Assembly (NCBI GenBank): GCA_020619395.1
Contig: GCA_020619395.1_4860.1
Source of the DNA: a phage
Length of the DNA stretch: 64,000 nucleotides
Direction: 5' to 3' (one strand)
The position numbers were made by a program, and so were the translations under genes. Shown here one piece after another: positions 2,535-55,191 of this stretch. The notes beneath the pieces were generated by a model. It worked only from the letters and a program-made list of their open reading frames with translations. It made no database searches and was not told the origin of the DNA. Within the stretch, counting starts at the first letter, position 1. Each line of letters begins with the position of its first letter.

Positions 2535-2566
2535 AAAAAAGAAGAAATGGAACCCCGAAGGGTTCC
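2535..2566 (-). terminator. rho-independent terminator
   Basis: hairpin ggaaccc-cgaa-gggttcc (2549-2566) followed on minus strand by T-run (plus A-run 2535-2548). Confidence 0.65.
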
Positions 2567-2577
2567 AGAGAGGAGAG

Positions 2578-3221: not shown

Positions 3222-3250
3222 CAAAAAAAGAAGGTAGCCCGTAGGCTACC
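3222..3250 (-). terminator. rho-independent terminator
   Basis: hairpin ggtagcc-cgta-ggctacc (3233-3250) with T-run on minus strand. Confidence 0.65.
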
Positions 3251-3258
3251 TCTCGTAT

Positions 3259-5623: not shown

Positions 5624-5651
5624 AAAAAAGAATAGGCTACCCGAGGGTAGC
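5624..5651 (-). terminator. rho-independent terminator
   Basis: hairpin ggctaccc-gag-ggtagcc with T-run on minus strand (plus aaaaaag 5624-5630). Confidence 0.6.
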
Positions 5652-5673
5652 CAGTTGAGTTAATCTCTTAACT

Positions 5674-5696
5674 CTCACCTAGGTAATATATATCTG
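5674..5696. promoter_or_regulatory. conserved intergenic motif, copy A (CTCAC-ctag-GTAATATATATCTG)
   Basis: directly after stop of 5704..6291 gene. Confidence 0.4.
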
Positions 5697-5703
5697 AGAT
5701 ATT

Positions 5704-6324: not shown

Positions 6325-6365
6325 AAAAAATAAGAGGACTCCAGTAACCGCGAGGGTTACTGGAG
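6325..6365 (-). terminator. rho-independent terminator
   Basis: hairpin ctccagtaacc-gcgag-ggttactggag, T-run on minus strand. Confidence 0.7.
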
Positions 6366-8112: not shown

Positions 8113-9351
8113 TTACAGTAAACGCAAATCTGCGACAAACAACAGTTGACGGCCGTACTTAGTCACTTCTTTCCAGCCATTGTTAACACCCCATTTGATG
8201 ATAGCGTCGTAATGCCACTGTTTCAGTTCGCTGGTACCCCACGCATCCCGTACCGCCTTCGCCGACATCAAATAAGCAGGTTCGGCAACGGAGCGCATTT
8301 CAGAATCTGGCAGGCGAGAAACAACGGAACTGTTCACACGCTGCAGCGTTCCTGACACCTGTATCCAGAACGCAGGCGATATTGTATTTGTCGGTCGACA
8401 GTCAAATACCCAGGCCGTGTCATTTTCACTGGCCGGGGTCTTACGCTTATAGATGCTTAACAGTATTTCCGATTGGATAACTTCGCGGAAAACGTTAAGA
8501 AGGGTGACGACCTTCTCATTAACCACATCGCCTTTTTCGACCTTATGGTAATCTTTAAGGTTTCCGGGCTCTGCTATCGGCATTACTGACCAAACATCGG
8601 CGTCTAACATCTCACCGAAATAATGGTTAGCGTTTTCATCAGATGTCCAGAACATCGTATTGCCATCATTGGCTATGGTGGCTAGATCACGCAGTGCTTC
8701 CTTGGTGTCTTCGTCAATTTCCACAGGTTTGGCTGCTTCACGCGGTGCGTTTTTCGTGTAGAATCTGCGCTTGCTTACCGCTCTATTCCATACGGTAGTA
8801 ATTTGGTACGCAGTGAATTCGGGGAACTGCTGCACCAACACTTCTGCATCAACATCAAGCCGCTCTGAATTAAAGTTTTGTAATTTCTCATTAAACCCTG
8901 TATTCAGCTCTCCGCCAGTCCACCAGTTGCTGTCGCTTAGTGCAGGCATGTCAGGTGTTAACTCGAACACCGGTTTATCGATCAGCAGAGTAAGAATGTA
9001 GTGCACCCACATTGTGTTACCCTCAGCAATGGCGCGTCCGATGTTTTGATTACCCGATAGGTAAGCTACCCGCGAATCCCCTTCGAACGTCATGGTTAAT
9101 TCAACCCACGGCGCTAAGTCAGAGACGTGGTGGCCTAAACGACACTTTACTTCCCCTTTGTCAAGCAGACGCTTTTCGACAACGGTTGAGAGCTTTTGTG
9201 GCAGGCACGCACAATCCTGCCACGTTACGTCGCTGTAAGCCATACTCCGAACACTGAACTGCATTCCCAACAGTACAATTGTGTTAGTAATTACTGCATT
9301 AAAGAATGCTTCTTTCGGTGTCTGGTAAACTAATTCGTATTCGTTATACAT
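8113..9351 (-). CDS. hypothetical protein (~412 aa)
   Basis: ORF runs to 9387; ATG at ~9351 (MYNEYELVY..) has RBS aaggaaa. Confidence 0.6.
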   Translation of the reverse strand: MYNEYELVYQTPKEAFFNAVITNTIVLLGMQFSVRSMAYSDVTWQDCACLPQKLSTVVEKRLLDKGEVKCRLGHHVSDLAPWVELTMTFEGDSRVAYLSGNQNIGRAIAEGNTMWVHYILTLLIDKPVFELTPDMPALSDSNWWTGGELNTGFNEKLQNFNSERLDVDAEVLVQQFPEFTAYQITTVWNRAVSKRRFYTKNAPREAAKPVEIDEDTKEALRDLATIANDGNTMFWTSDENANHYFGEMLDADVWSVMPIAEPGNLKDYHKVEKGDVVNEKVVTLLNVFREVIQSEILLSIYKRKTPASENDTAWVFDCRPTNTISPAFWIQVSGTLQRVNSSVVSRLPDSEMRSVAEPAYLMSAKAVRDAWGTSELKQWHYDAIIKWGVNNGWKEVTKYGRQLLFVADLRLL

Positions 9352-9442
9352 TTGGTATTTCCTTTTAAAGTACACTAAAGTGACCAAAAACTGTTACTAA
9401 AGAACAGTTGGTGTTTAAGCGACTGTGGGTTTATACACAATG

Positions 9443-9465
9443 CTCACGAAGATAACATCTATCTG
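9443..9465. promoter_or_regulatory. conserved intergenic motif, copy C (CTCAC-gaag-ATAACATCTATCTG)
   Basis: between 9473..9790 stop and 8113..9351 start. Confidence 0.4.
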
Positions 9466-9472
9466 TAAAAAC

Positions 9473-9790
9473 TTAGTATACAACCAGTACGATGCAGTCA
9501 TCGATAGCCAGATTCAGTAATGAGTAGTCGTTACTTAACCGCTGGTAACGCATCCCTTTTTCAAACTGACTTAATTGTTCAGTCGGCATGGCGTATACCG
9601 CGCTTTGCACTACTCCCGTAAACAGTTCGTCGTAGAACTGGTCTACTTCCCCGACTTTGTAAAAGCGCATTCTTTGATTGTTAGCAAAGACGCTGTCTAG
9701 CTTCCCGTTACTGGCTTTCTGTACCGCAGTAAAGGCACTGTCTGCATCATTACGCTCTAATGCACTTTTAATGGTTTGAAATAAAGACAT
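9473..9790 (-). CDS. hypothetical protein (105 aa)
   Basis: ORF. Confidence 0.5.
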   Translation of the reverse strand: MSLFQTIKSALERNDADSAFTAVQKASNGKLDSVFANNQRMRFYKVGEVDQFYDELFTGVVQSAVYAMPTEQLSQFEKGMRYQRLSNDYSLLNLAIDDCIVLVVY

Positions 9791-9975
9791 GGTACTGCAC
9801 TCCTCGTTAGGTTAAAAGTCAAGGTCAACTACAAAAACAAAAAGGATGTCGGTATCCTACGGATACCTCCGTCTATGTTCGCATCCAATACATAAACCCC
9901 CTTACCCCCGTACTCTCCTCGATTGTCAAACGATGAGATCGAAACGTAAAAAGTGTAGTATGAGAGGAGGGTGGT

Positions 9976-10908
9976 ATGAATAAATCTAAGTCAGGGTTGC
10001 ACATCTTCTCGATAGGTATCGTCGCGGAAGATAAACCTCGTGGTGCCACTCGAGTTAAAGTCATCCCTATCGAAGTTAACTTTATTAATCCTACAGCTGT
10101 CGATGCAACAGAGACACCTGTAGAGAAGCAACACAACAGTTTAAGTGGTACTGACAACCTTACTGTAAAGCAAGGTAATGCCATCACTGCAAAATGGATG
10201 AAGTCCAACAGCAACCGGGTTAACCCTCCGGATGTGAAAAAAGAAGACTACGTAAGAATCTGGCGTATCGGTGAAACCGATATGTACTTCTGGGAAGATT
10301 TAAACAACAGTAACGTTAAGCGACTGGAAGATGGGGTATACGCCTGGTCTGCTGACCCAGTAAACCAGATGGCCGATGACCTCTCTAACGCCTACGTACT
10401 GAATATCTCCCCGATGGATGGTCACGTTACTTTACGCACCAGTATGACTAACGGTGAGAAAAATGCGTATCTATTTCAATTGAACACGCGCGATGGGTTT
10501 TTCCAGTTAGTAGATGACGAAGGGCGTAAGTTCTACCTTAACTCCCCAGAGGATGACTTAGGGTTTGAAAACGCCTGCCGATCGAAGGTTAATATCAATA
10601 AAGAGGACGCTTTCATTTATGCTAAACGTTCTATTAATCTCGAGACAAAAACGATTAACGAGAAGTGCGAAACTCGCAACTCTGCAGCGTCGAAAAACAT
10701 GGCATGGACGACTGAAGACTGGAAGACCGATTGTCCAACGAATCTATTTACCGGTAACCTGGAAGTAGGTAAGGATTTCCTCTATAATGGCAAGGGTGAA
10801 GGTAAGGGTACATTCACAGTTACCGAATCGGTTATCGGTGGCATCACCTTTAGTCTTCACTTGCATACTGGCCATGGTCCGGGCAACGACACTAGCACAC
10901 CGCACTAA
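9976..10908 (+). CDS. hypothetical protein (310 aa)
   Basis: strong RBS gaggagg before ATG; divergent from upstream block. Confidence 0.6.
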   Translation: MNKSKSGLHIFSIGIVAEDKPRGATRVKVIPIEVNFINPTAVDATETPVEKQHNSLSGTDNLTVKQGNAITAKWMKSNSNRVNPPDVKKEDYVRIWRIGETDMYFWEDLNNSNVKRLEDGVYAWSADPVNQMADDLSNAYVLNISPMDGHVTLRTSMTNGEKNAYLFQLNTRDGFFQLVDDEGRKFYLNSPEDDLGFENACRSKVNINKEDAFIYAKRSINLETKTINEKCETRNSAASKNMAWTTEDWKTDCPTNLFTGNLEVGKDFLYNGKGEGKGTFTVTESVIGGITFSLHLHTGHGPGNDTSTPH

Positions 10909-11069
10909 TTTAATTACGTGTGAGCTGTATATTGTGACAATAAACCTCCTAACTGTAACGATAACCCAAATCGCTTGTACACGGTTAGCCACTTTTTTCG
11001 CACAAAAGCCGGTTTATTGTCAACTAATTTACGAGTCGGGGCAGTTAATATGCCTCGAAGTACAAGTAG

Positions 11070-11096
11070 TTGAACATTGGGTTCTTCTGCTATCAT
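11070..11096 (+). promoter_or_regulatory. candidate sigma70-type promoter (TTGAAC-15/16-TATCAT)
   Basis: only plausible -35/-10 pair in the 200 nt leader of the DUF1471-like gene; spacer suboptimal. Confidence 0.25.
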
Positions 11097-11116
11097 TTGT
11101 TAATGGAGATAAGTAA

Positions 11117-11326
11117 ATGAGCATTCGTGAAATCACCGCAGGCAGCGACGTTTCTGGTCTGGTAGAAGCAGGCACTGTTCAGGTTTCTGGACTGAGCACC
11201 GTTACCGAAGTTACCGAAGCGCTGGCTAAGAAAGCCGAAGCTGAAGGCGGCGTAGCATTTAAAGTTACCGCTTGTGGCGGCAACAACAAAATGTTCGGCA
11301 ACGCAATCTACTACGTAAACGCGTAA
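11117..11326 (+). CDS. DUF1471 (BhsA/YcfR/YdgH-like) domain protein without signal peptide (69 aa)
   Basis: C-terminal ..EALAKKAEAEGGVAFKVTACGGNNKMFGNAIYY resembles the BhsA family from memory; RBS ggag; codon usage like highly expressed enterobacterial genes. Confidence 0.5.
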   Translation: MSIREITAGSDVSGLVEAGTVQVSGLSTVTEVTEALAKKAEAEGGVAFKVTACGGNNKMFGNAIYYVNA

Positions 11327-11351
11327 TCGGCCTGCAGGCAAAAAAGATATA

Positions 11352-11397
11352 GGTACCCTACTCCCATTGGGAGTAGGGTTTACCTTTTATTTTTTTC
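11352..11397. terminator. bidirectional rho-independent terminator
   Basis: stem accctactccc / gggagtagggt (11355-11379), flanked by A-run upstream and T-run downstream. Confidence 0.75.
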
Positions 11398-12649
11398 TTG
11401 CTTTGTAGCGATGCATTTCAACAAACGGCTTACCCCAAGCCCCGAAAGGCCCGACGATTGCCTGCGCGTCGTTTACCAAATTCTGGTTATACCAACGCGC
11501 GTTCCCCAACAAAAAGTTTTCCCGGTCGAAGAATGTGGTATTAAAGACCCACTCCCCTTCTTCCCAGGTCGGCCAGTACCCTACACATTTACCAATACGG
11601 TTAAAGATAGGACCTAGCGTCTTCTTCCCATCTGGGTCAGTCGGGTCTTTTAAATAGAACCGGCCCCAGATAGCGTTGTGGCTTATTCCGTGAATCTCTT
11701 TTTCGAGATACGGGTTGTCTATCGTAAAGATAAACGAGGATTCGTGCGTCAGCAACGCTTTTAACGTTTCTGAGTTACGAATACGTTGAACGGACGTAGG
11801 CGTACTTAAATCACCTACACCGATGGCGTCCCAATCGTAATAGCGACGGGTTTCCAATACAATCTTCGCCACGCTAAGGTTTGGCAGACTCAGCATAATC
11901 GCACGGTCGCTGAAATAGCCCTGCGGTGGCAACCAATGCAGAATACCCCCGATGACGAACCCAACGGTTTTCCCTGTAATGGAATCGGGTAAGGTCAACA
12001 TTAACGAAGAATAGTAATCTCGCGTAGTATCGAGTTTGTTCATCGTTAAACCGGATATGGGGTAAGTCTTCACTTTACCAATATTCGCCATCACTAGACA
12101 GCCGATGTCGGGTGTGTTGGCTCTCCGCACGATGTTACCAGCGCCGGTTAAGCGAACACCCACTGGGTCAGATTGGTGCGGTACCCATTGACCGTTGATG
12201 TTGTACAGTACCCCAGTACGGTATTTCTCTTTCCACTCATCGTCGCAGACTACAACAACGTCGTGTGCATCATCAGGATTGAAGTCCTGAGTGTAGTGGT
12301 ACCCAGGAGGGCACAGGTGCGTTTCTACGGGCACATCTGCATTAATAGACTGGTAGTGTGCCTCAACGAATTCGAGCTTCGGTAAGCCCTTCCCAAGCGT
12401 TGGAATCGCGATTCCTGACTTGGTGTTTAACCAATCTTGCAACGTGTCCGTACGGTTTTGTAAATCAGCCAGGTGATACTGGCTATAGAAGGTATATTCA
12501 GCACCTAGTGCTTCTAGTCCTACTTCGAAAAAGTGGTAGTTAGCACAAAGGGTATTTAAGGGCTGCGTGACATCGATGGTTCCCCAAGTTCGGGTGTCTC
12601 GAGAGAAGCCAAAAGCGCTGTCGGCCCGCACTTGATAAGCAGTAGTCAC
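11387..12649 (-). CDS. hypothetical protein (420 aa), possibly structural
   Basis: long ORF divergent from the tail-fibre operon. Confidence 0.6.
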   Translation of the reverse strand: MTTAYQVRADSAFGFSRDTRTWGTIDVTQPLNTLCANYHFFEVGLEALGAEYTFYSQYHLADLQNRTDTLQDWLNTKSGIAIPTLGKGLPKLEFVEAHYQSINADVPVETHLCPPGYHYTQDFNPDDAHDVVVVCDDEWKEKYRTGVLYNINGQWVPHQSDPVGVRLTGAGNIVRRANTPDIGCLVMANIGKVKTYPISGLTMNKLDTTRDYYSSLMLTLPDSITGKTVGFVIGGILHWLPPQGYFSDRAIMLSLPNLSVAKIVLETRRYYDWDAIGVGDLSTPTSVQRIRNSETLKALLTHESSFIFTIDNPYLEKEIHGISHNAIWGRFYLKDPTDPDGKKTLGPIFNRIGKCVGYWPTWEEGEWVFNTTFFDRENFLLGNARWYNQNLVNDAQAIVGPFGAWGKPFVEMHRYKARKK

Positions 12650-12716
12650 TGGCTGTTTCCTCTAAGGATTCGGGTCATAGTATGAACTCGACGCCCTCAG
12701 AGAAAAGGAGTGTAAA

Positions 12717-15700
12717 ATGGCTGTCGTCCCTGACCCGCACTATCAAGAACCGGGGAATATGCAGACCGGTGAAGCGGTAACGCCGATCGGTACTAAGTAC
12801 CGGATGCTGTTCCCCGCACACGCCCCCTTTTATACCACATCCCTGGTGGTCAAGAGTGGCGGCAAGAAATTAACATTAGGTGATGATTACGTCATCACCC
12901 ATGCGTACGTTACGGGCATGGCCCGCACTGGCCATGTTTGTCACGGCGGCGTGTGGATTACCAACCCGAAATACCAGAGCGGCTTTACACTCGATTACCA
13001 TGCAATTGGTATCGGCGAAGCCACTGCAGAAATGATCGCCGCAGAACGAGAAGCGAATAAAGATCGCTATCCCGTAGACTGCCAATGGGATAACGTCATT
13101 GGGGATTTATATTTCCCACCGGTCGATATTAAGTTCGATTGGGAAAACTGGCGTGGCGAATCTGAGTTGATGGAAGCCATTGTTGCGGTTGGTGCTAAGC
13201 TCGGTGAAGCGATCAGTCGCGTTGACCCGATTGCTCGTAACACGTTAGACCTTCAATATCGCGCCGGCGTCACGCTTATCACATCCGAGCAGTATGCGAC
13301 GTACGACGGTACTGGCGGCTACACGTATAACGCGTCGCGTCGTCGTTATTCGTTATCTTACCAGAACACGACATTCGATGCGTATTCGTTAGCGGTAAAA
13401 CACCGTTTACCGAGCATTCCACCGGAAACAACGTTGAACCCAGGCGAGCTGATCGATTGGATGCTCTGTTACGCAAACGGCGGGACAAGTATCCTGCGTC
13501 TTCAGTTGAAGCAACGCGCGATTTATCTTACCTTAACGACAGCGATTGGTTCCGGTTCGTCTAATTACAGCTATACGTTAACTACTGGCCTGACCGATAC
13601 CGAGTTGGCGGGTGAGGTTGAGTTTAGCGTGGTCAGACGCGAAGGTAACGGCGTTTACGACATCACCGTTAAAACAAGCAAGCAAACCGTTAACTACAGC
13701 TTTAACGTTGACAACCCACCGAGCGAATTTGCACCAGGGTATCAGAAAACTGATGTCGCAAAATGGTTGAAGTTTAAATCGGACGTCAACCTAAACTGGT
13801 GGGCAGGTGAGAACGATTACGTCCAGATTCGCTCATTACCTGGCGCACCGTCGCCTGACGTTAACAATGACGTGTACCAGCTGCTGGTAAAATATCACCA
13901 GATTGTCGATAAACTGTACCGTGATGCACCGGCACACACACACGTGCCGCGCAAGGATAACCCGCATCGCGATTCGTGGGGCGCAATCCGTGCTTTGGAG
14001 AATAACGGTATTGCTTCGGACGCGACGCTGGTATACGGAAAAACGCAACCGCAGCTGACAGATTACGTTAACAATCTGTTGCCGAAACTGTCAACGCTGG
14101 CGAATAAGCTTTTACGTTTACCGACGGCTGCACAGTCTATCAACGGCACGTTCGGCATGAAGCCTGGCCTGACTTCAATAACGTCAGCAGTGGGTACCGA
14201 TGAGTCTGAAGGCGTGGGTGCACAATTTACGGTTGACCCGAGGGTTATCCGTTTTATTGGACGCGATTCGCAAACCGTTAACGCCGGGAACAATCCGATT
14301 ACATGGCAAGGTGGGGCTAACCAACTCATCCTTTATCCGGATTCCCGTGGATTGGAGTTCAACGGTAAGAAATTGTTGGACCCTACTACGGTCGGGCCGT
14401 ACCTGCCGGGCAACGAGTCGGGTGGTGATGGACTATTTTACGGAACATCCACAGCTACTGTAACCATTAACGGTAACGGTATTCAGTCTGTTCCGTTCAT
14501 TTGTACTTTTGTTCCACCGGAGTCCGACGACCTTGGCCTGATGGCTGTCCGTTTGTTGGCTACTGAATTCGGTGATCGTGAGGACTTGGCCGCAACGCCG
14601 GCACTCATCAAGAAATTGGATCAGCAGTTTACGGGCAAGTTGGTTGCCGTTAAATCGTACATCAACGACATGCCACTGACGAGTTCTATTTACATCGATA
14701 AAACTAACTTCGGCTTATCGAACGTACAGAACGTCCCAGATGTACAATTGCCGATCTCCCCGCTCCAACAAGCTGAGCTGGACAAGTATGCATTCGTTGG
14801 TCACACACACACTCCTGCTGCGCTCGGGATTAAGCGTGCAACAACGACGGAGTTCGGTTTAGTACAGTTCGGCACCGCGGTTGATGATGCCACGCTGGCA
14901 TTAGACGGCGGTGAGGTCATCCGACAGGCGGACGCCATCACAGAGATAGAGAAGGTTGCGAAGACAGTCGACTCTGGTGCTTCAATCAATATTATTCGTT
15001 ACGGTTTACCCGGCACGGATATCATTGAAAACGGCATCACTTACACCGACTGGATGGTTACTATTAAAGCGAACGATTATTTCGTTGGTCGCGAGTACAA
15101 AGTACCTCTCTCCACATTTAACTTGGCTGAGCTATTCCCAGCGACGCACGAAGATGCTGAGTTTGGCGTGTATGTTGACGCGGCGGGCGATGATGGCAAG
15201 TACATTATCTACGAAAATCCAAACACGGCAGAAACTGAGACGATGACCAAAATAGGTTCCATCATCACCAGTGAAACCGGTGTGGTTTTTGTAGAAATCC
15301 GCAACGTAACGCGTTTAGGTGAGTTTCGTGAATTAGGCGAGCATGTCGAGGACGATAACGCCCATATTCGTCGGGGTATGTCGCAAGCTGAATTCGGATT
15401 TACTTACGGTACAGGCGGGCCTGTGTGGTCCACGGGCGCGCCGGGTACAAAACGTATAGATGCTGATTGGCGTTACGCGCAGGCTAGCAGCTATACGCCT
15501 ATGTTGAAAGCGGACTACGATCCGGCTGCTGATAAATGGACGTTTAAAACAACCAGTTTATCTGTAGCCGATTATCGTTTTGTCCACAACACATTCCCGA
15601 TGTTCCAGAATAACGGCATTACCGCAACGTGGACACCTTTAACCGCAACAGCGGACAGTGTGCTAGAAACGGTAATTGGGTGTTGTCATCACTCGGCCAC

Positions 15701-16430
15701 GTTCATGCACCGTATTTCTGTACTCGTCGCACGCACCGCAGGGCGTATCACCACTCCAGGCGGCGTGAGCACGTATGCGGGAATCGCGGTTAACTACGGA
15801 CGTGCTGCACAGGTTGTTATTGGCTTGAACGGCGTTACTGGTTCCGGCCATGACTGGACGGCACTTAACCCATCGGTGCGTTTCAGCCACACGCGAACAG
15901 CGGACGGTATTTCGTTCGAGGGAACGATTAACATCGATTCCAAAACGATCAACTTTGAGCTGACGCTAACCGCGACAACAAAGACGCTGAAATACACCTT
16001 GCAGTCGACCGGCGAGTCGTGGACTGAGGATTTGTCTACCCGTCTCCGTCCTGACTATATCGACTTGACGAAACTGATTACCGATCCGAGTACGCCGATT
16101 TATCACGGCGTGGGTGGTTTGTTTAGTTCCGACACAGAAGCGCGTTTGACTTACGCTAACCTGAACACGATGCCGACAAAGAATCGTTATTACGCCACGT
16201 TCCTTGACTATGCGATTAACTATTCCGGCTTAAACCGCGCAAGATTCTTTACTGGCGTGGTGGATGCAGGTTTAACGATTAATGAGATGAACAGCGCGAT
16301 GTGCAACTATTCATACAGTTCGTTCCGACCAGTGGATGCAGGTAAAATTCCACTGGTGGCACACCCATCCAAGATGATGACGTTCAATCCGAAAAACACG
16401 TCAGCTCGAACACTTATTATTCGTGATTAA
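12717..16430 (+). CDS. tail fibre protein 1 (1237 aa)
   Basis: RBS aaaaggag; shares N-terminal domain with next three genes; GHTHT..ATTTEFGLVQFG fibre-type repeat motifs. Confidence 0.65.
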   Translation: MAVVPDPHYQEPGNMQTGEAVTPIGTKYRMLFPAHAPFYTTSLVVKSGGKKLTLGDDYVITHAYVTGMARTGHVCHGGVWITNPKYQSGFTLDYHAIGIGEATAEMIAAEREANKDRYPVDCQWDNVIGDLYFPPVDIKFDWENWRGESELMEAIVAVGAKLGEAISRVDPIARNTLDLQYRAGVTLITSEQYATYDGTGGYTYNASRRRYSLSYQNTTFDAYSLAVKHRLPSIPPETTLNPGELIDWMLCYANGGTSILRLQLKQRAIYLTLTTAIGSGSSNYSYTLTTGLTDTELAGEVEFSVVRREGNGVYDITVKTSKQTVNYSFNVDNPPSEFAPGYQKTDVAKWLKFKSDVNLNWWAGENDYVQIRSLPGAPSPDVNNDVYQLLVKYHQIVDKLYRDAPAHTHVPRKDNPHRDSWGAIRALENNGIASDATLVYGKTQPQLTDYVNNLLPKLSTLANKLLRLPTAAQSINGTFGMKPGLTSITSAVGTDESEGVGAQFTVDPRVIRFIGRDSQTVNAGNNPITWQGGANQLILYPDSRGLEFNGKKLLDPTTVGPYLPGNESGGDGLFYGTSTATVTINGNGIQSVPFICTFVPPESDDLGLMAVRLLATEFGDREDLAATPALIKKLDQQFTGKLVAVKSYINDMPLTSSIYIDKTNFGLSNVQNVPDVQLPISPLQQAELDKYAFVGHTHTPAALGIKRATTTEFGLVQFGTAVDDATLALDGGEVIRQADAITEIEKVAKTVDSGASINIIRYGLPGTDIIENGITYTDWMVTIKANDYFVGREYKVPLSTFNLAELFPATHEDAEFGVYVDAAGDDGKYIIYENPNTAETETMTKIGSIITSETGVVFVEIRNVTRLGEFRELGEHVEDDNAHIRRGMSQAEFGFTYGTGGPVWSTGAPGTKRIDADWRYAQASSYTPMLKADYDPAADKWTFKTTSLSVADYRFVHNTFPMFQNNGITATWTPLTATADSVLETVIGCCHHSATFMHRISVLVARTAGRITTPGGVSTYAGIAVNYGRAAQVVIGLNGVTGSGHDWTALNPSVRFSHTRTADGISFEGTINIDSKTINFELTLTATTKTLKYTLQSTGESWTEDLSTRLRPDYIDLTKLITDPSTPIYHGVGGLFSSDTEARLTYANLNTMPTKNRYYATFLDYAINYSGLNRARFFTGVVDAGLTINEMNSAMCNYSYSSFRPVDAGKIPLVAHPSKMMTFNPKNTSARTLIIRD

Positions 16431-16442
16431 GGAGATTTTTGA

Positions 16443-19400
16443 ATGAAAACGTATCCTTACGATCCTCGGGGTGTAAATCCCGAGTGTCACTTCATCGAGG
16501 AACGTATCATCGACTCCGACAATCCTAACGATCGGGTGGTGATGCTAGATCATCGCCCGTTTTTCGAAGGATTGGTGGTAAGGCTCGCCGGCTCGTCCAT
16601 ACCGCTTACCCGCGGGACGGACTATGAGCTGGAGTATGCTTTAACACCGTTGGACGACTCGGTGACGACCCCGGTGTTTTGCGGGGTGCATCTTATTAAC
16701 CCTAAACTGCGTGGTGCGGTGGTCTTTGAAGGCCAGATGCTCGGGGGTACGTTTTACAGTGGTTTGATTGAGATGTTGGATGAGCTAATTAAGGCACTCA
16801 ACAACCCAACGGCTGCAGATTGGCTGCTTTTAGGTAATCGACCTTCCCTGTACCCAGCCACCCCTGCAGCGGTAGCTTGGTCAGACATGCTGAATAAAAA
16901 GTATGTTGCCTCTGCAGTGCATGATGTGGAGTTAGATGCCGGGGCGGCCAACGAGCAGATTCGTGAAAAGCTTACTGAGCTGAAAGATGCGGTTTTGGGC
17001 TTAGGAACTGAAATCGCCACATTTAACTACCCCGGACACATTGCGTCCACTAACCCTCATGGGACTACCGCGGCGCAGGCCGGTGCGCATCCTGTCAACC
17101 TGAAAACGCCAGATACTTTCCTGGCGTATGGAAAGACGTTGCGTCAGTTAACCAGCGAGGTCCGTGCACTGGGTCTGCAACAATCGGATATCGACAAGTA
17201 CATTTCTAAATGGGTATCGAAAGAATCCAAAGGGGTGTTTAATGCGACGATATCCGGTACTCGTGCCCTGTTCCGTTCTCCTGCTGGTGAATCCGAAATT
17301 GTGTTCTCTGCTGAGGCATTCACTCTTAAATCTAATGGCTCTGTTGTGTTGGCGTGTGGGTATGCCGACACTACTGGAACCGCCCGGTTTATGGAGTGGA
17401 AAGCAGGCAACAATACATTACGTATTGAGTCGACTGGCAGTGCCTTGGGGATGGATAAGCTGACGCTTAATGGTACGACGTTACTGACCACAACTGCTCT
17501 CATGGGCTATCAACAAGACCCTGGTACCGGCGGTGGTACCGTTGACCCGGATGACAACAAACTGTACATTAGCGGGGTGAACGGCATTACTTTCACGGGT
17601 AAAGGGTCAAAAGCCGATCCCGTCACCGGGAAGGTCACAGCCAAACCCGCGACGACCTCTGAACCTGGCGTTGTGACGCTGACTGATAAGCCGAGCGATG
17701 TAGTCAAGGGACAAGCAGTCACCCCAGCTTCGCTCTTACCGTACGAGGGTGATCTGTCTTCGTACGTCAGGAAAACAACGCTGCTGAATAACCAGCCGAT
17801 GGACACTGGTAGCCGAACGCTAACGAAAAAGGATTTGGGTCTGGACTTGGCTGATAACACAGCTGACGTCGATAAACCACTTTCTGATGCGTTGGCAGAA
17901 GCAGTTACCGGTCTTAGTGATAAAGATCACCATCACAACTTCGCCGATTTACAGATCCCAACGGCTTCTCAAACAGTTCCCGGTATCGCTCGATATTCTA
18001 CCAACCTAAACGGCTTGTCGGATAATCGCGGCGTTACCCCGAACGTTCTGAACGATTTGTCAAAACGTTTAGACGTAGTTGCAGCTGCGCTAGCAAACGC
18101 GAAAGAGGATTCCGTGACCGATTTTGCCGCTGTGCGCGGTAAGACTTGGACTGTGGGATCTACACGTACCACCCTCGCCGTAACGGATTTGAATTATTTC
18201 TATCTGTTAAATGGTGCACGTAAAGAGGGGACGGTATCTGGTTCGATAGACTTGCAAACCACCCCGATGTTCCAGTGGTTCTCTCCAGATAACCGTATGG
18301 AAAGAACGTGGCAGAACGCGGTAATTAATACCGGTGCCGGTATTGATTTTAGTGGGTTTGAGGTTGCCGTCCCGGAAACGAACTACGGTGCGCAGATTGG
18401 GTTAACGACAACCGGAATGGGTGATTTGTCGGTCGTTAACCTCTTGGCGAAAACGTGGGTTCGTTGCGACTCTGGTAAGCTGCGGATTTGGGTTCGTGGC
18501 GGTGGTGCTGTTTCTGTTTATCTGGACGGTGAAATTATCGGTGCGGGTATTACAGAAGCGGGGTATCTGGAGGCGAAGGTCAAGGAGGGGTGGAAGCAAC
18601 ACTGCTTAGCATTCCGTGCCGAGTGTAACGATAGCGCTAAAGCAGCCGCAATTCGTTTCACAATTTACGACGGTGACTTTGCGGTTGGGGCCTCGGATAA
18701 AAACACCAAAGTTGCCCGCCTGCAGGAGTTTGTTAAGACGCCGAACGGTTTAAGGCATTACCTTTACGTGAACATGATAACCGATGCGTTATATTCGCGC
18801 GCCGAACCTATTGTGGACACGGAAGGTATTAACCTGGAACGTGGGTATATCGGCCACATTGATGTCCCTGACGCGGGATTGGTTGCAGGCACGACTTACG
18901 AGTTTGAAACGACGTTTGATTTTGGCATGGCGTCCGAACTTAAACGGCACTTCGAAACACGTCTAGCACACGGGGTGAGTAACACCGACTGGTCGTTGAC
19001 GGATAACCCGAAAATGCTGCCGTTGAATAAGGTTGATCCATTACCTAAACAATGGCTGTATGCGTATCCAACTAACCCGTCTGTTTCTGGGGATAACCTC
19101 GTTCGTTTAGATCGTGGGTTATTTGATTATAAATTCGTAAGTGCCACCTCGCTTAGGATTCTTCTTGCGGCGGTTGTTTCCACTGAAAACGCGTCCCCGT
19201 ATTGCTGGTTTACACCAAGCAACCCGAAAGAAAATGGTATGGCGACATTCGAGGGTTCGGTGGTAATCGACACTGATTATCCTGAAGTCCCAAAAACCTC
19301 GGACGTCGAAGTTTCATTAAACTTCATGACCCCTTCTGCTGATGGGAAAGGTAAAACCAGAGTCCTGCGGTGGAGTAACACCAAGACCAGTTTAAATTGT

Positions 19401-20573
19401 GGCTTTATTGCCGCGCCGTACGATAAACCAACCGGAAGAATTGCCAGCACACAATCCAGCGTTACTAATACGCTGGTTGATGCTCCTCGTGTAATCAAGA
19501 GCGTGGATGTTCAGTCGCCTGACTGTTTAGACTATCTCCCGGTTTCAATCGCTAGCGAGTTCGCAGCCATTGGTTCGCGCTGGCTTATTCGTTATCGCTA
19601 TATTGTTGATACGCAGATACTGCGAATATCGACGATTAGTAAGATAGGTGGCCAGGCTTCGGCAACTGTTCGTGAGATAGAATACGACGTTCCGTTTGAC
19701 GCGATTGATTATTTTAAAGGTGGCGCTTTATCGATTAGTGTTACTGGCATCGAAACTGGTGAAGGCGTCACAATCAACCACGGTTTGATGGACCCCTCCA
19801 CAACAGAAGTAGATTTAAATCGTTTCCATTATCTACGCTCACTATTTGAGTCGTATATTGAGCGTTCTCCAGACAGCCAGTCTTCTGGGCATGAGGAGAT
19901 GTCGATATCAACCGTCACGTTCGCGAACTTTGGAGATAACGTCGATAACCCGGTTACGGAATACATCACGATGTCTGCTGCAAGTGAGGGTTATCCGGAA
20001 CTTGCACCGAACGGTAAACTCCCCGCACCGTTTTACAAAGGGCTGCAGAAACGTGGTGCTCCGCTACTTGAGTCGGCTCCTGCAGACTATACGTCTAACG
20101 GTGGTGAATGGAAGTACGGCTTTATGCGGGCTTATCGCCCAACTCAAAATGAGCGTTTTGTGTCGGTAAATGGGACAATGCTCTCTAACTACCCTGGATA
20201 TATCATCGTGGGTAGTGAGAAAATTCCGGGTAATGTTATACCTTTCAGTGCATCGACAACAGCTGTTCAGATATCTGGGACTCTTGCCCGCACGAAACCG
20301 ATGCAGCCAATTCACATCGTGTTCGTGCCTCCGGAAGGTTCTGTGCCGCCGCTGCAAGCGAAGTTCACTATTAATGGCGTGGGCAGTAGTGGTAATCCGA
20401 TGTTCGTGATTACTGAAACGACACCGGTGGAACTTCGCACTGGTGGCGAGACGATTCTCATTGAGAAGCGTAATCCATTCCACATCCCCACCAGGACATG
20501 GGATTGGATTTTACAAACGTTGGATACTGAACGTAGAAACGAAGGCAACAACTCGGGTGAGTGGGCCTCTTAG
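16443..20573 (+). CDS. tail fibre protein 2 (1376 aa)
   Basis: RBS aaggag; DHHHNFADL and TASQTVPGIARYS / ATTSEPGVVTLT fibre repeat motifs. Confidence 0.7.
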   Translation: MKTYPYDPRGVNPECHFIEERIIDSDNPNDRVVMLDHRPFFEGLVVRLAGSSIPLTRGTDYELEYALTPLDDSVTTPVFCGVHLINPKLRGAVVFEGQMLGGTFYSGLIEMLDELIKALNNPTAADWLLLGNRPSLYPATPAAVAWSDMLNKKYVASAVHDVELDAGAANEQIREKLTELKDAVLGLGTEIATFNYPGHIASTNPHGTTAAQAGAHPVNLKTPDTFLAYGKTLRQLTSEVRALGLQQSDIDKYISKWVSKESKGVFNATISGTRALFRSPAGESEIVFSAEAFTLKSNGSVVLACGYADTTGTARFMEWKAGNNTLRIESTGSALGMDKLTLNGTTLLTTTALMGYQQDPGTGGGTVDPDDNKLYISGVNGITFTGKGSKADPVTGKVTAKPATTSEPGVVTLTDKPSDVVKGQAVTPASLLPYEGDLSSYVRKTTLLNNQPMDTGSRTLTKKDLGLDLADNTADVDKPLSDALAEAVTGLSDKDHHHNFADLQIPTASQTVPGIARYSTNLNGLSDNRGVTPNVLNDLSKRLDVVAAALANAKEDSVTDFAAVRGKTWTVGSTRTTLAVTDLNYFYLLNGARKEGTVSGSIDLQTTPMFQWFSPDNRMERTWQNAVINTGAGIDFSGFEVAVPETNYGAQIGLTTTGMGDLSVVNLLAKTWVRCDSGKLRIWVRGGGAVSVYLDGEIIGAGITEAGYLEAKVKEGWKQHCLAFRAECNDSAKAAAIRFTIYDGDFAVGASDKNTKVARLQEFVKTPNGLRHYLYVNMITDALYSRAEPIVDTEGINLERGYIGHIDVPDAGLVAGTTYEFETTFDFGMASELKRHFETRLAHGVSNTDWSLTDNPKMLPLNKVDPLPKQWLYAYPTNPSVSGDNLVRLDRGLFDYKFVSATSLRILLAAVVSTENASPYCWFTPSNPKENGMATFEGSVVIDTDYPEVPKTSDVEVSLNFMTPSADGKGKTRVLRWSNTKTSLNCGFIAAPYDKPTGRIASTQSSVTNTLVDAPRVIKSVDVQSPDCLDYLPVSIASEFAAIGSRWLIRYRYIVDTQILRISTISKIGGQASATVREIEYDVPFDAIDYFKGGALSISVTGIETGEGVTINHGLMDPSTTEVDLNRFHYLRSLFESYIERSPDSQSSGHEEMSISTVTFANFGDNVDNPVTEYITMSAASEGYPELAPNGKLPAPFYKGLQKRGAPLLESAPADYTSNGGEWKYGFMRAYRPTQNERFVSVNGTMLSNYPGYIIVGSEKIPGNVIPFSASTTAVQISGTLARTKPMQPIHIVFVPPEGSVPPLQAKFTINGVGSSGNPMFVITETTPVELRTGGETILIEKRNPFHIPTRTWDWILQTLDTERRNEGNNSGEWAS

Positions 20574-20574
20574 G

Positions 20575-20648
20575 ACGGACTGCCTACGGGCGGGTAGTCC
20601 GTAGGTAAACCGCCCTTCCGTTATTGGGAGGGCGGTCTCCGTTTTATT
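20575..20648 (+). terminator. tandem hairpins, terminator
   Basis: GC-rich hairpin 20575-20605 then accgccc/gggcggt hairpin 20609-20636 followed by T-run. Confidence 0.55.
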
Positions 20649-20668
20649 ACAGATTAGGAGTGTTTGCA

Positions 20669-39557: not shown

Positions 39558-39593
39558 AAAAAAAGAAAATAGGCCCTTCAGGGCCTATTTTTA
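39558..39593. terminator. bidirectional rho-independent terminator
   Basis: stem aggccc-ttca-gggcct flanked by A-run and T-run. Confidence 0.7.
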
Positions 39594-39724: not shown

Positions 39725-40627
39725 TTAGCTAAGAACCAGTTCGATAACGTGGACTACCGACGCGCTATTGGTCGAAGAGGTGTACGATGGTGTGTCTGGT
39801 GAGTTGCTGCGATAGTACCAGGGGGTGGCGTTGTCATAACCGTTGGCAAACAATGTTGCGCTTGAATCGGTTGGACTACCGCCGGAGCGCGCCGGTAAGT
39901 CGCCAAAACGTCTTACGACGCCCGCGTAGCGGAACAAGCTTGCGAACGTGTTGTGCCACTCGCCATCTTGAAAATAACCACCGCTGCTTAGGTAGGTGCT
40001 GTGCCCATAACTGTAGTCTCCGAGTCGAGGCAAACGTACCACATACTCGTAACCGTCTTTATTAAATGTCCGACGCTGGTTAGTGGTAGCGACGCCCCGT
40101 GGCGGGAAACCGTAGTCATCTGTTCCCCAGGCCAGACCTTGCTGGTATTGTTCGTTCCACGTCGTCCCTAAACGGGTCACCGTGTCAGGAATGAACAGAA
40201 TGCGTCCTTTGAAAACGAATTTATGGAACAATGTTGGAGCTTGGTTCCAGGCATTAAAGCCAATTAAACCATTCAGCTCGGCATGGTTAAGAATAAATTC
40301 TTCGTTTGTCAGTGTGCCAAAGTAGCCACGATGCCAATCGCCACGAATAAGTTCCTGTGGGCCGGGCCCTGTCATTGGAAAGTCGCCCTGTACAATCGGC
40401 AGCCCCATAACCTTTTCAGTGCCCTTTACCGCCACGATGCGATATTGATACGTTTTATACGCCTCGGTGGTCGTGTCCTCGTACGTCGTTGTGTTACCTG
40501 GTAGTGTTACAATAGGTTCCCCCGGTGCTACTGGGTTAACACTTTGTCTGGGGTTGTCGTAACGATAGATTTCAATGGAATCTAAAGTCTGACCTGGCTG
40601 TTGTTTCCAGTTTAAGATAATCGACAT
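39725..40627 (-). CDS. family-B paralogue 1 (300 aa)
   Basis: N-terminal Ig/FN3-like (..IEIYR..TY.Y.IVAVK) then TGPGPQ..GDWH.GYFG domain. Confidence 0.65.
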   Translation of the reverse strand: MSIILNWKQQPGQTLDSIEIYRYDNPRQSVNPVAPGEPIVTLPGNTTTYEDTTTEAYKTYQYRIVAVKGTEKVMGLPIVQGDFPMTGPGPQELIRGDWHRGYFGTLTNEEFILNHAELNGLIGFNAWNQAPTLFHKFVFKGRILFIPDTVTRLGTTWNEQYQQGLAWGTDDYGFPPRGVATTNQRRTFNKDGYEYVVRLPRLGDYSYGHSTYLSSGGYFQDGEWHNTFASLFRYAGVVRRFGDLPARSGGSPTDSSATLFANGYDNATPWYYRSNSPDTPSYTSSTNSASVVHVIELVLS

Positions 40628-40630
40628 GTT

Positions 40631-41629: not shown

Positions 41630-41639
41630 CTGTTACTCC

Positions 41640-43082: not shown

Positions 43083-43093
43083 GAAGTCTCCTG

Positions 43094-43993: not shown

Positions 43994-43995
43994 GA

Positions 43996-44985: not shown

Positions 44986-44997
44986 TGTCGTTACCTC

Positions 44998-46494: not shown

Positions 46495-46507
46495 GGTATT
46501 TACTCCA

Positions 46508-47431: not shown

Positions 47432-47440
47432 GACTGCCCC

Positions 47441-48439: not shown

Positions 48440-48450
48440 AGATGATACCT

Positions 48451-49863: not shown

Positions 49864-49880
49864 AGGGACTCCGCATCGCC

Positions 49881-49907
49881 AAAAGAGGGGGGCTCCGAAG
49901 AGCCCCT
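49881..49907 (-). terminator. hairpin, weak terminator
   Basis: stem ggggctc-cgaa-gagcccc; only a short T-run on minus strand. Confidence 0.4.
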
Positions 49908-49911
49908 ACAC

Positions 49912-55181: not shown

Positions 55182-55191
55182 CTATACCCTC

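Follow-up and report, generated by a model that had tools for sequence, protein, structure and literature searches.

Putative intrinsic terminators of an SPN3US-like jumbo phage follow one design, and some of their stem-loops appear to have been copied between gene boundaries

The closest described counterparts of the hairpins reported here are the terminators of two jumbo phages. In phiKZ, 61 terminators contain the motif 5'-BCCYCCCCHWWDGGGRRGGBYTTATKYYGT-3' (Putzeys et al. 2024, PMC10914365), and 59 terminators of 201phi2-1 contain motif A, which strongly resembles it (PMC11512511). In both phages, hairpins of this design coincide with mapped transcript 3' ends (PMC10914365, PMC11512511), and eight terminators of 201phi2-1 were functional in a reporter assay (PMC11512511). 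A further related system is the PeSL (promoter-early stem-loop) cassette of T4-type phages, which joins a stem-loop terminator to an early promoter (Arbiol et al. 2010, PMC2839356; Comeau et al. 2014, PMC4122927). PeSLs are repeated in the genome, are sited where the gene content of relatives differs, and have been proposed to be homology patches for modular exchange (PMC2839356, PMC4122927). AT-rich early-promoter consensus motifs have been reported for every jumbo phage that encodes an RNA polymerase (PMC7598289). Our literature search found no paper on the terminators of SPN3US and no transcriptome of its clade.

The window, a stretch of 64,000 nucleotides of phage DNA (GenBank assembly GCA_020619395.1, contig GCA_020619395.1_4860.1), is 97.3% colinear with SPN3US. 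Its identity to the SPN3US/SPFM jumbo phages (Seoulvirus) is 97–99%, and the SPFM phages are 99.3% identical across the region of hairpins H3 and H4. A sequence-only reading of the window had proposed four related terminator stems, and all four (H1 to H4, Table 1) were recovered at exactly the coordinates it gave. Each is a perfect palindrome of 10–13 bp with 6–8 G-C pairs, has no G in its 5' arm, and is located between genes, 8–40 nt past stop codons. The near-identity reported for the stems of H1 and H2 was also confirmed, as a 10-nt arm, ACCCTACTCC, is common to both. The RNA folds of the four hairpins range from -21 to -30 kcal/mol over both strands (z -4.2 to -7.2), with values of -24.8 (plus strand) and -24.4 kcal/mol (minus strand) for H1 (z -5.3 and -4.5), -20.9 kcal/mol for H2 (z -5.2), -25.3 and -27.5 kcal/mol for H3, and -29.6 and -26.3 kcal/mol for H4. 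All of the approximately 15 strong hairpins of the window have a T-rich tail on the strand of the upstream gene, and the tails of H1, H3, and H4 are T-rich on both strands, matching their convergent genes. A YTTAT element follows H1 on the plus strand and H3 and H4 on both strands, and is found on the plus-strand side only of H2. An Rfam scan covering the whole window gave no family at or above its gathering score, so these hairpins are not a curated RNA family.

Table 1. Positions of hairpins, their tails, and neighbouring features in the window
Feature	Position	Strand	Sequence	Remark
gp094 homologue	11117-11326	+		convergent gene at H1
H1 tail, minus-strand transcripts	11340-11354	-	ACCTATATCTTTTTT	T-rich
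H1	11355-11379		ACCCTACTCCC-att-GGGAGTAGGGT	11 bp, perfect palindrome; read as bidirectional intrinsic terminator
H1 tail, plus-strand transcripts	11380-11397	+	TTACCTTTTATTTTTTTC	T-rich, YTTAT element inside
gp095 homologue	11387-12649	-		convergent gene at H1
gp105 homologue (DUF4376)	31863-32534	+		convergent gene at H3
H3	32552-32575		CCTACCTCCC-cgaa-GGGAGGTAGG	10 bp; read as bidirectional terminator at gene-content breakpoint
gp106 homologue	32616-33143	-		convergent gene at H3
gp107 homologue	33267-33758	+		convergent gene at H4
H4	33761-33791		CTTACCCACTCCC-gtaag-GGGAGTGGGTAAG	13 bp; read as bidirectional terminator
gp108 homologue	33884-34399	-		convergent gene at H4
gp131 homologue	56879-57325			downstream of promoter-like motif
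5' untranslated region stem-loop	57357-57377	-	GAGAGTTAA-cca-TTAACTCTC	after promoter-like motif
Early-promoter-like motif	57376-57399	-	TTCAGATATATATTACTTAGGTGA	36 nt downstream of H2
Part of promoter-like motif	57384-57393		TATATATTAC	
H2 U-tract	57420-57434	-	TTCTTCTTTTTTTGT	on minus strand only, the strand of all neighbouring genes
H2	57435-57458	-	ACCCTACTCC-cgaa-GGAGTAGGGT on plus strand, loop uucg on minus strand	10 bp; read as unidirectional intrinsic terminator
gp132 homologue	57499-57939			gene ahead of H2, stop codon 40 nt before H2
Same-class terminator	2548-2567	-	TGGAACCC-uucg-GGGTTCCA, then TTTCTTCTTT	
Same-class terminator	3231-3252	-	GAGGTAGCC-uacg-GGCTACCTT, then CTTTTTTTGT	
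Same-class terminator	5635-5652	-	GGCTACC-cucg-GGTAGCC, then TATTCTTTTT	directly downstream of second early-promoter-like motif
Same-class terminator	6339-6365	-	CTCCAGTAACC-cucgc-GGTTACTGGAG, then TCCTCTTATT	
Same-class terminator	35967-35988	-	CCTCTTCCC-cacg-GGGAAGAGG, then CTTTCTTTTT	
Same-class terminator	39566-39591	-	AAAATAGGCCC-ugaa-GGGCCTATTTT, then CTTTTTTTAG	
Same-class terminator	49889-49906	-	GGGGCTC-uucg-GAGCCCC, then CCTCTTTTGG	
Same-class terminator	62673-62700	-	GCTACCACAC-gaucauau-GTGTGGTAGC, then TTATTTTTTTTT	

The intergenic position after stop codons, the T-run on the transcribed strand or strands, the strong folds, and the compensatory changes at H1 described below support the proposal that these hairpins are terminators. 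Judging from these features and from the analogy to phiKZ and 201phi2-1, H1 to H4 are most likely intrinsic terminators, bidirectional in the case of H1, H3, and H4 and unidirectional in the case of H2. That transcription actually ends at these hairpins we infer by analogy with the same two phages. Because each hairpin is a perfect DNA palindrome, the same RNA hairpin, with a C/U/A-rich 5' arm and a G/A/U-rich 3' arm, would arise from either strand, and a U-rich tract would follow the stem on every strand on which a gene runs into it. H1, H3, and H4 would then halt convergent transcription from both sides, and H2 would halt leftward transcription just ahead of a promoter-like motif, which would restart it. 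Overall, we think it probable that H1 to H4 are Rho-independent terminators of an SPN3US-like jumbo phage that follow one design and whose stems are kept by selection and occasional copying.

Compensatory changes keep the H1 helix intact. In 10 genomes, the orthologous helix is 100% paired (106/106 cells), compared with 43–57% pairing in slid controls, and four of its 11 pairs are altered on both sides while none is altered on one side only. The stem, loop, and tail of H2 are identical in SPN3US, SPAsTU, Machina, phiEaH2, and Huxley, an invariance that extends from Seoulvirus to Machinavirus and Erskinevirus even though the downstream protein is merely 28–36% identical. The core of H4, TACCCACTCC, is likewise invariant in SPN3US, STsAS, pEa_SNUABM_29 (pEa29), and phiEaH2, which is uninformative on pairing; H4 is read from its sequence as a conserved copy of the TACCCACTCC stem family, and a second H4-type copy with the same loop is located at position 186744 of SPN3US, outside the window. 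Judging from these comparisons, each of H1, H2, and H4 is an old occupant of its site and has been passed down there vertically across genera. Conserved palindromes could instead act at the DNA level, as a cruciform or as a protein-binding site for replication, packaging, or recombination, and the perfection of the palindromes would suit such an element, as would the loop flips seen among close relatives, which imply an interaction of the DNA arms. A DNA site does not require the post-stop placement and the strand-matched T-runs that a terminator needs, however, and hairpins of the same design lie at mapped 3' ends in phiKZ and 201phi2-1, eight of those of 201phi2-1 having worked in a reporter (PMC10914365, PMC11512511). 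We find this explanation hardly credible.

The four hairpins belong to a larger set. SPN3US contains approximately 41 strong terminator-like hairpins, the 5' arms of which consist of 47% C and 15% G, compared with 24–25% of each in the genome; 17 of the 41 arms have no G at all, and CTAC is enriched in the arms (10 occurrences versus 3.1 expected). Among 53 oriented SPN3US terminators, 48 have a closing C-G pair, 22 have a UUCG or CGAA loop, and 30 have TTAT within 14 nt of the stem. One plan is found in the roughly 40 terminators of a genome, with a G-poor 5' arm, a closing C-G pair, often a UUCG loop, and a YTTAT/U-run tail. Much of the looser likeness (C-rich arms, a ..CTCCC end, and UUCG/CGAA loops) is the design common to all terminators of the phage family. 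Two details of the sequence-only reading have to be amended in this respect. It described a shared ..actccc core, but H3 reads ACCTCCC, and an ACTCC core is only modestly supported (six arms versus 1.65 expected, or four versus 1.3 when identical stems are collapsed). It also gave the loops as mostly CGAA or GTAA, which holds for H2 and H3 (CGAA), whereas H1 has a 3-nt ATT loop and H4 a 5-nt GTAAG loop.

C(UUCG)G tetraloop hairpins are abundant in the intergenic regions of phage T4, and the loops and closing pairs of the SPN3US terminators are similar in the proportions given above. The T4 observation concerns loop stability only, not the re-use of whole stems. The resemblance to phiKZ and 201phi2-1 is broader. 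As in those phages, the family has its own multisubunit RNA polymerases, many terminators per genome are built on one design (a pyrimidine-rich, G-poor 5' arm, a purine-rich 3' arm, a short loop, and a YTTAT/U-rich tail), bidirectional terminators lie between convergent genes, and terminators are also found near promoters. In contrast to phiKZ, the stems of the SPN3US group are longer (8–13 bp) and more diverse, the loops are mostly UUCG/CGAA instead of the A/T-rich HWWD, and identity is confined to discrete stem families at few loci instead of one genome-wide consensus. The terminators of phiKZ and 201phi2-1 are transcript-mapped, and those of the SPN3US group are predicted from sequence. The published phiKZ consensus CCYCCCC-HWWD-GGGRRGG-BYTTAT had no match in the window with up to three mismatches allowed; the hairpins of the SPN3US group resemble the phiKZ/201phi2-1 terminator motif with no literal match to it.

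H2 is the only one of the four hairpins with a promoter-like motif nearby, H1, H3, and H4 having none. The loop that reads CGAA on the plus strand is UUCG on the minus strand. The motif matches twice in the window, where no match is expected, and occurs in six copies in SPN3US, all on one strand. Its TTCAGATATATATTACYTAGGTGA element is not of the TTGACA/TATAAT type; a sigma-70 scan gave no minus-strand site at the motif, and promoter-like sites in the window were no more common than in shuffled sequences. We infer that the motif is a virion-RNA-polymerase promoter for the gp131 homologue. The stem-loop in the 5' untranslated region that follows the motif has a stem sequence that differs among motif copies. 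DNA similarity searches showed that the region directly upstream of H2 contains two extra genes in SPAsTU and an unrelated gene in Machina, next to a cassette and a downstream gene that are both conserved; a search for related loci with gp132 returned only two loci, of which the distant one was uninformative. H2 is read from these sequences as the 5' edge of a conserved regulatory cassette. This cassette of a hairpin, a U-tract, a promoter-like motif, and a 5' untranslated region hairpin would suit a PeSL, in which a terminator stem-loop and an early promoter lie within about 100 bp, if the motif is a promoter. The genes upstream of it differ among relatives. Unlike in a PeSL, the promoter-like motif is not of the sigma-70 type, the terminator part is inconstant across the six SPN3US motif copies, H1, H3, and H4 have no promoter, and only the stem-loop and the A/T tracts have been seen copied. 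We rejected the possibility that a repeated terminator-promoter cassette has the H2 stem as a constant component, as the six SPN3US motifs have different upstream hairpins or none. In viral contigs, only seven of the 67 sites with the stem CCCTACTCC have the motif within 110 nt, and these are mostly the same orthologous site in different genomes.

Gene insertions, deletions, and replacements among relatives begin at H2 and also at H3, a further likeness to PeSLs. The H3 site of STsAS and pEa29 instead holds CCTCTCTACC-ctag, beside extra genes or extra DNA, and that of phiEaH2 holds GACCTACTACC; the additional content at this site consists of extra paralogues in pEa29 and phiEaH2 and of 1.8 kb of extra DNA in STsAS. 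The suggestion that the hairpins may mark module boundaries was supported for transcription units at all four hairpins and for gene content at H2 and H3, where it shifts in relatives exactly at the hairpin, but not at H1 and H4, where there is no such shift.

Stem re-use was compared with three composition-preserving null models, including per-arm composition and an arm-trained first-order Markov model. Five pairs among the 41 SPN3US hairpins have at least 10 identical arm bases, versus 0.01–0.08 expected. In IMG/VR, CCCTACTCC was found at 60 loci (67 sites) and a scrambled stem of the same composition at three loci; the other hairpins in those 60 loci yielded no further large stem family, in a sample that is biased because it was built around one stem. 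Each stem family has 2–6 copies. In pEa29 and STsAS, the DNA-polymerase site and the H3 site have the same hairpin, CCTCTCTACC-ctag-GGTAGAGAGG, and by-eye comparison of the two pEa29 copies gave a match of approximately 42 nt with one mismatch, which runs into the flanks. The only differences between site 87087 of pEa29 and the orthologous SPN3US site, namely one base pair and a loop change from TTCG to CGAAAA, turn the pEa29 site into the hairpin of pEa29's own H4 site. The polymerase site of phiEaH2 carries an H4-type hairpin with the loop reverse-complemented, and further copies of the H4 stem-loop occupy different sites in pEa29, phiEaH2, and SPN3US. Three identical CCCTCTTACC-uucg hairpins of SPN3US have three different stems as their pEa29 counterparts. 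By manual classification, the same stem is kept at 17 of 36 mapped SPN3US/pEa29 orthologous sites, with flanks that are 68–81% identical; the sites orthologous to the window's hairpin at 62673-62700 carry an identical stem in both phages.

The earlier proposal of a propagated terminator cassette in place of independent hairpins is supported for the hairpin class as a whole, whole stem-loops having been copied between loci in relatives, but it does not extend to the window's own pairs: the great age of H1, H2, and H4 at their respective sites implies that these pairs are not recent copies. What is copied is the stem-loop, at most approximately 26–42 nt, and not a larger cassette with unique flanks. 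With at most one mismatch, the 11-mer of H1 is confined to the arms of H1 and H2, four in all. These two hairpins have nothing in common outside the stem: their flanks are not similar, and their loops differ. Since each is also old, their identity could have been kept from an old event or be convergent. Duplication along with paralogous genes was considered as well and discarded. Although relatives contain paralogues of gp106, there is no paralogy among gp106, gp107, and gp108, and the genes adjoining H1 and H2 belong to different PHROG families and had no family in common in a Pfam scan.

Independent convergence could in principle account for all of the sharing, if family terminators are confined to a narrow sequence space (a G-free, C-rich 5' arm, a CC closing end, and a UUCG loop) and no copying takes place. 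Arm composition is strongly biased, and the stems CTACCCTCTCC and CTACCCACTCC differ at one pair, so that a single compensatory change shifts a stem between the two families and some of the sharing may be convergent; the unrelated flanks and loops of H1 and H2 and the vertical conservation of H1, H2, and H4 at their own sites agree with this explanation. It is difficult to reconcile with the excess of identical pairs over the nulls and of CCCTACTCC loci over those of the scrambled stem, with the extension of the pEa29 match into the flanks in the by-eye comparison, and with copies that have the loop in common too, sometimes as its reverse complement. In the one case examined, at site 87087 of pEa29, stem and loop changed jointly and so came to match a second locus of that genome. 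Convergence as the full explanation is therefore considered unlikely.

A different reason for keeping a stem would be sequence-specific recognition, in which the stems, above all CCCUACUCC/GGAGUAGGG, are read by a phage or host factor such as a termination or antitermination factor, an RNA-processing or RNA-protecting protein, or the phage RNA polymerase. The invariance of the stem, loop, and tail of H2 across three genera points in this direction, as do the enrichment of CTAC in the arms and the abundance of the CCCUACUCC/GGAGUAGGG stem, which is approximately 20 times more common in viral contigs than the scrambled control and has 2–6 sites per genome in the clade. Most terminators of the same genome have unrelated stems, however, orthologous sites swap stems while the site is retained, the H1 stem drifts via compensatory changes, loops are hypervariable, and no candidate factor was identified; we regard recognition as quite improbable.

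Short intergenic palindromes at several loci per genome, with GTAG/CTAC enriched in their stems, are also reminiscent of the REP sequences of bacteria, which have a GTAG head. Like REP/BIME elements, the hairpins lie after genes and would be able to affect transcript 3' ends, and a REP- or MITE-like mobile palindrome spread by a dedicated transposase, with an incidental terminator role, was considered for the GTAG/CTAC enrichment. Against it, there are only 2–6 copies per family, the SPN3US annotation contains no transposase or RAYT-like gene, the flanks are the A-tract and T-tract of an ordinary terminator, and every copy is located exactly at a gene end with its T-run oriented to the upstream gene. 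In contrast to REP/BIME elements, moreover, the hairpins have clear terminator tails, and copying takes the form of one terminator replacing another, not of insertion at new sites. This explanation was set aside for the low copy number and the lack of an annotated transposase, and it is very improbable.

Selection combined with occasional copying could work as follows. Strong purifying selection would hold a stem unchanged at its site for long, and a terminator stem-loop would occasionally be overwritten by a copy of another through short-tract ectopic recombination or gene conversion of approximately 26–42 nt, for which the A-tract/T-tract flanks common to terminators and partly similar stems may serve as homology. 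At the molecular level, the copying may have involved gene conversion, template switching, or co-transfer with inserted genes. A more far-reaching version, which we offer tentatively and hold to be possible but somewhat short of an even chance, is that the terminators of Seoulvirus, Erskinevirus, and Machinavirus evolve in concert: a few 'master' stem-loops, for example those of the H4 and DNA-polymerase sites, would repeatedly overwrite others by ectopic conversion of that length seeded by these flanks and partly matching stems, and the same sites would be joints for gene gain and loss. In a stronger candidate form of this concerted evolution, the commonest stem, CCCUACUCC, would be kept because a phage factor reads it. 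If true, concerted evolution would be the equivalent of the T4 PeSL system, based on terminators, for phages whose own polymerases carry out transcription within a phage nucleus.

These findings do not overturn current understanding. The family-wide design of phiKZ-type phages was already known, and the modest addition made here is that some hairpins have been copied between gene boundaries, with no new kind of element. They provide the SPN3US group, for which no transcriptome was found, with a usable map of putative terminators and transcription units, comprising approximately 15 sites in the window and 41 in the genome, accompanied by a candidate early-promoter consensus. The enterobacterial branch has a looser version of the conserved terminator design reported for the Pseudomonas phiKZ-like phages, and its bidirectional terminators, being compact, may find use as parts in phage and synthetic-biology work. 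Copying of stem-loops, together with the breakpoints at H2 and H3, suggests that short-tract recombination and the gain and loss of genes take place at terminators in these genomes, which is relevant to the exchange of accessory genes among jumbo phages.

By sequence comparison, the window is part of a Seoulvirus jumbo phage, a phiKZ relative, as bases 9000-24000 matched Salmonella phage SPN3US and its relatives at 97.5%, SPN3US 171380-108926 was colinear with the whole window at 97.3%, and the region of hairpins H3 and H4 was 99.3% identical to the SPFM phages. According to the SPN3US annotation, such a phage is transcribed by its own multisubunit RNA polymerases (background in PMC7598289). 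Approximately 2.9 kb of SPN3US (106026-108926), corresponding to gp143 and gp142, annotated as tail fibre and tail protein genes, is absent near the right end of the window, and the ~21-base overlap of the two alignment blocks at the junction is suggestive of deletion between short repeats. Some 16 leftward ORFs (~265-500 aa) form a long tandem run; their SPN3US counterparts are annotated as virion structural proteins, and weak DNA similarity among the members (~74%) suggests a paralogous array. The gene just upstream of H1 encodes a 69-aa protein with a domain matching Pfam PF07338 (YdgH/BhsA/McbA-like; E = 3e-11), whose members are small stress-related proteins of bacteria; the protein is carried here by a jumbo phage and is also kept in relatives.

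The sequence-only reading had described four reused terminator stems, and all four palindromes (H1-H4) are present and perfect, with three corrections: H1 has the loop ATT, the loop of H4 is 5 nt long, and the H3 arm contains ACCTCCC rather than ACTCCC. With at most one mismatch, the H1 11-mer occurs in the window only at the H1 and H2 arms. H1, H3, and H4 are flanked by convergent genes, with stop codons 8-30 nt away and a T-rich tract on either side of the hairpin; H2, within a series of leftward genes, follows the stop codon of one of them at a distance of 40 nt and has a strong T-run (TTCTTCTTTTTTTGT) on the leftward-gene strand only. Approximately 15 strong hairpins in the window have a T-run on the strand of the gene running into the hairpin. 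Palindromes driven by a transposase, or with a role only as DNA, fit poorly with this strict gene-end placement and with the strand-matched T-runs. RNA folds of H1-H4 had energies of -21 to -30 kcal/mol on both strands, and none of 200 shuffles was as stable; an Rfam scan of the window gave no family matches. Among ten genomes compared at the H1 site (flanking protein 63-100% identical), all cells were paired, with two-sided changes in 4 of 11 pairs and one-sided changes in none, and sliding the partners by 1-3 columns as a control gave only 43-57% pairing. From the gene-end placement, T-runs, stable folds, and compensatory changes at the H1 site we infer termination, and H1-H4 are best read as intrinsic terminators, three of them bidirectional; their earlier designation as terminators is borne out by hairpin anatomy and conserved pairing at the H1 site. 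The literature search found no transcript mapping for the SPN3US clade.

Hairpins and associated features of the window
Feature	Position	Strand	Sequence or content	Remark
H1	11355-11379		ACCCTACTCCC-att-GGGAGTAGGGT	perfect palindrome
H2	57435-57458		ACCCTACTCC-cgaa-GGAGTAGGGT	perfect palindrome
H3	32552-32575		CCTACCTCCC-cgaa-GGGAGGTAGG	perfect palindrome
H4	33761-33791		CTTACCCACTCCC-gtaag-GGGAGTGGGTAAG	perfect palindrome
24-nt AT-rich motif	57376-57399 and 5675-5698	-	TTCAGATATATATTACYTAGGTGA	2 in window, none expected
Second motif site	5635-5698	-	motif, 5' stem-loop, then putative terminator hairpin
5' stem-loop of second site	5657-5674	-
Putative terminator hairpin of second site	5635-5652	-	GGCTACC-cucg-GGTAGCC and U-run	ends ~50 nt downstream of motif, ahead of gene start 5598
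YdgH/BhsA/McbA-like gene	11117-11326	+
gp106	32616-33143	-		DUF7941-like
Leftward ORF run	39725-55989	-
Junction lacking SPN3US segment	~62437-62457

The SPN3US genome, put together from five fetched pieces, contained 41 hairpins that have a T-rich tail and a perfect stem (8 bp or longer, 5 or more G-C pairs), corresponding to 53 oriented terminators. In their 5' arms C makes up 47% and G 15% (genome 24-25% each), and 17 of the 41 arms are G-free; among the 53 terminators, the closing pair is C-G in 48, the loop is UUCG in 16 and CGAA in 6, and TTAT lies at most 14 nt from the stem in 30. These features closely parallel the conserved terminator motif published for phiKZ, 5'-BCCYCCCCHWWDGGGRRGGBYTTATKYYGT-3' (61 terminators; PMC10914365); 201phi2-1 has a strongly resembling motif (59 terminators), and eight of its terminators were functional in a reporter assay (PMC11512511). 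The literal phiKZ consensus has no match in the window, even with three mismatches; the window hairpins thus share the phiKZ-class design and would act in the same way, minus the exact consensus. This common plan accounts for much of the looser likeness noted earlier (CGAA loops and C-rich arms with a CTCCC end). Across the SPN3US genome (L061-L065), terminator stems are enriched in CTAC on the 5' side (GTAG on the 3' side), which occurs in 10 of 41 arms versus 3.1 expected from within-arm shuffles and in 9 versus 2.5 with identical stems collapsed; the over-representation also concerns H1-H3 of the window.

Hairpin reuse is real and non-random, and stem identity between loci exceeds what design explains. 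SPN3US has five hairpin pairs with at least 10 identical arm bases, in three families: the H1 and H2 sites share ACCCTACTCC, three sites share CCCTCTTACC-uucg, and the H4 site shares TACCCACTCCC-gtaag with 186744. Null models using per-arm shuffles, draws from the pooled composition, and a first-order Markov chain trained on the same arms gave expectations of 0.04, 0.01, and 0.08 such pairs, respectively, and five pairs were reached in 0 of 1000 simulations under each. Pure convergence, in which similar stems arose separately, is disfavoured by the failure of these models to give the observed excess, by loops that change along with stems, and by one match that reaches into the flanks. A search of IMG/VR for CCCTACTCC stems closed by a loop of 3-6 nt gave 67 sites in 60 loci, mostly on jumbo-phage contigs (220-248 kb, each genome having 2-6 sites), compared with 3 loci for a scrambled stem of the same composition, 8 for CCTCTTACC, and 20 for CCTCTCTACC, the last mostly on large phage contigs of another group. 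On IMG/VR contigs of 250-276 kb (L093-L111), each genome has two or three loci with CCTCTCTACC/GGTAGAGAGG, whose loops differ greatly, and since this other group also reuses a stem, pyrimidine-rich stem reuse may be common among large phages.

Vertical conservation and copying both occur. The H1 site has a CCTAC-type stem in every lineage examined, drifting by compensatory changes (ACCCTACTCCC, CTCCTACTCCC, CTCCTACCCTCT, CCTACTCCCC); the H4 core TACCCACTCC is unchanged, with differing loops, in SPN3US, STsAS, pEa_SNUABM_29 (pEa29), and phiEaH2, where the upstream gp107 is only 55-62% identical; and H2 keeps its stem, UUCG loop, and U-tract in SPAsTU, Machina, phiEaH2, and Huxley. At the 36 terminator sites with both flanks mapped between SPN3US and pEa29 genome-wide, with stem classes assigned by our own reading, the stem is the same in 17 (flanks 68-81% identical), differs by one or two compensatory changes in ~5, and is clearly different in ~8, and 6 lack a strong hairpin by the criteria used. 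The H3 site of pEa29 and STsAS carries CCTCTCTACC-ctag-GGTAGAGAGG, the same hairpin as their DNA-polymerase site (orthologue of SPN3US 41184), and the two pEa29 copies, read by eye, match over ~42 nt with one mismatch, A-tract and T-tract flanks included. Site 87087 of pEa29 has the flanks and stem base of its SPN3US orthologue 46630 and differs in one base pair and the loop (CGAAAA versus TTCG); both differences convert it to pEa29's own H4-site hairpin, with 26 identical nt. The phiEaH2 polymerase site has an H4-type hairpin with the loop reverse-complemented, the pEa29 orthologue of SPN3US 186744 has an unrelated stem, and the three identical SPN3US CCCTCTTACC hairpins correspond to three different stems in pEa29. 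Because different lineages carry one stem-loop at sites that are not orthologous, surrounding a copy that is conserved, the pattern is that expected of occasional short-tract ectopic conversion or recombination, not of convergence. A factor that reads the sequence and keeps the commonest stem is quite unlikely, as most terminators use other stems and stems are freely exchanged among sites. Copying between loci has taken place for some stem-loops, the window's own copies being old, not recent. The propagation proposed by the sequence-only reading is partly supported, and the proposed cassette amounts to a stem-loop with its A/T tracts and nothing larger. Hairpin loops are hypervariable and often reverse complements in close relatives with identical stems and flanks, as at the H1 site and related loci: AAT (window) versus GTT (SPN3US), ttttcg/cgaaaa, and tccg/cgga (L013/L020, L022/L034, L029/L049). 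Such reversal between identical stems and flanks indicates DNA-level interaction of the two arms and suggests small inversions or template switching inside the palindrome.

All four hairpins are transcription-unit boundaries, and two, H2 and H3, lie at gene-content breakpoints; at H1 and H4 no gene-content change was seen in the relatives compared, and the suggestion of module boundaries is partly borne out. H2 is the 5' edge of a ~115-130-nt segment comprising, on the minus strand, the hairpin, a U-tract, a ~25 nt spacer, TTCAGATATATATTACYTAGGTGA, a variable 5' stem-loop, and a ribosome-binding site. In Erwinia phages this segment is conserved at 82-85% identity and the downstream protein at only 28-36%, and the genes immediately upstream vary (SPAsTU has two additional ones, Machina an unrelated one). 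At the H3 site, pEa29 has two additional gp106 paralogues, phiEaH2 one, and STsAS 1.8 kb of unannotated DNA, and the terminator is replaced in all three. The gp106 genes form a small paralogue family (one copy in the window and in SPN3US, two in phiEaH2, three in pEa29), in tandem and adjoining the H3 terminator site (L090 1885-3622; L091 1918-3031). The H2 and H3 breakpoints resemble the PeSL cassettes of T4-type phages (PMC2839356, PMC4122927), but the promoter type is not that of PeSLs, the hairpin part of the cassette is inconstant, and recombination here is putative. SPN3US has six copies of TTCAGATATATATTACYTAGGTGA, on one strand only; downstream of each copy come a variable stem-loop, the conserved box AATCGAC, and a ribosome-binding site. 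The motif fits the description of the early-promoter consensus present in every RNA-polymerase-encoding jumbo phage (PMC7598289) and is a candidate virion-RNA-polymerase early promoter of the SPN3US group, a function that we infer. The hairpin at the second motif site might terminate transcription close to the promoter or yield a short RNA; we liken it to the 5'UTR terminators described in phiKZ.

Overall, the best reading of the hairpins is as intrinsic terminators, belonging to an SPN3US-like jumbo phage and built on the design known from phiKZ-like phages. That terminator design has already been described for phiKZ-like phages, and the reuse of stem-loops is a modest addition to it.
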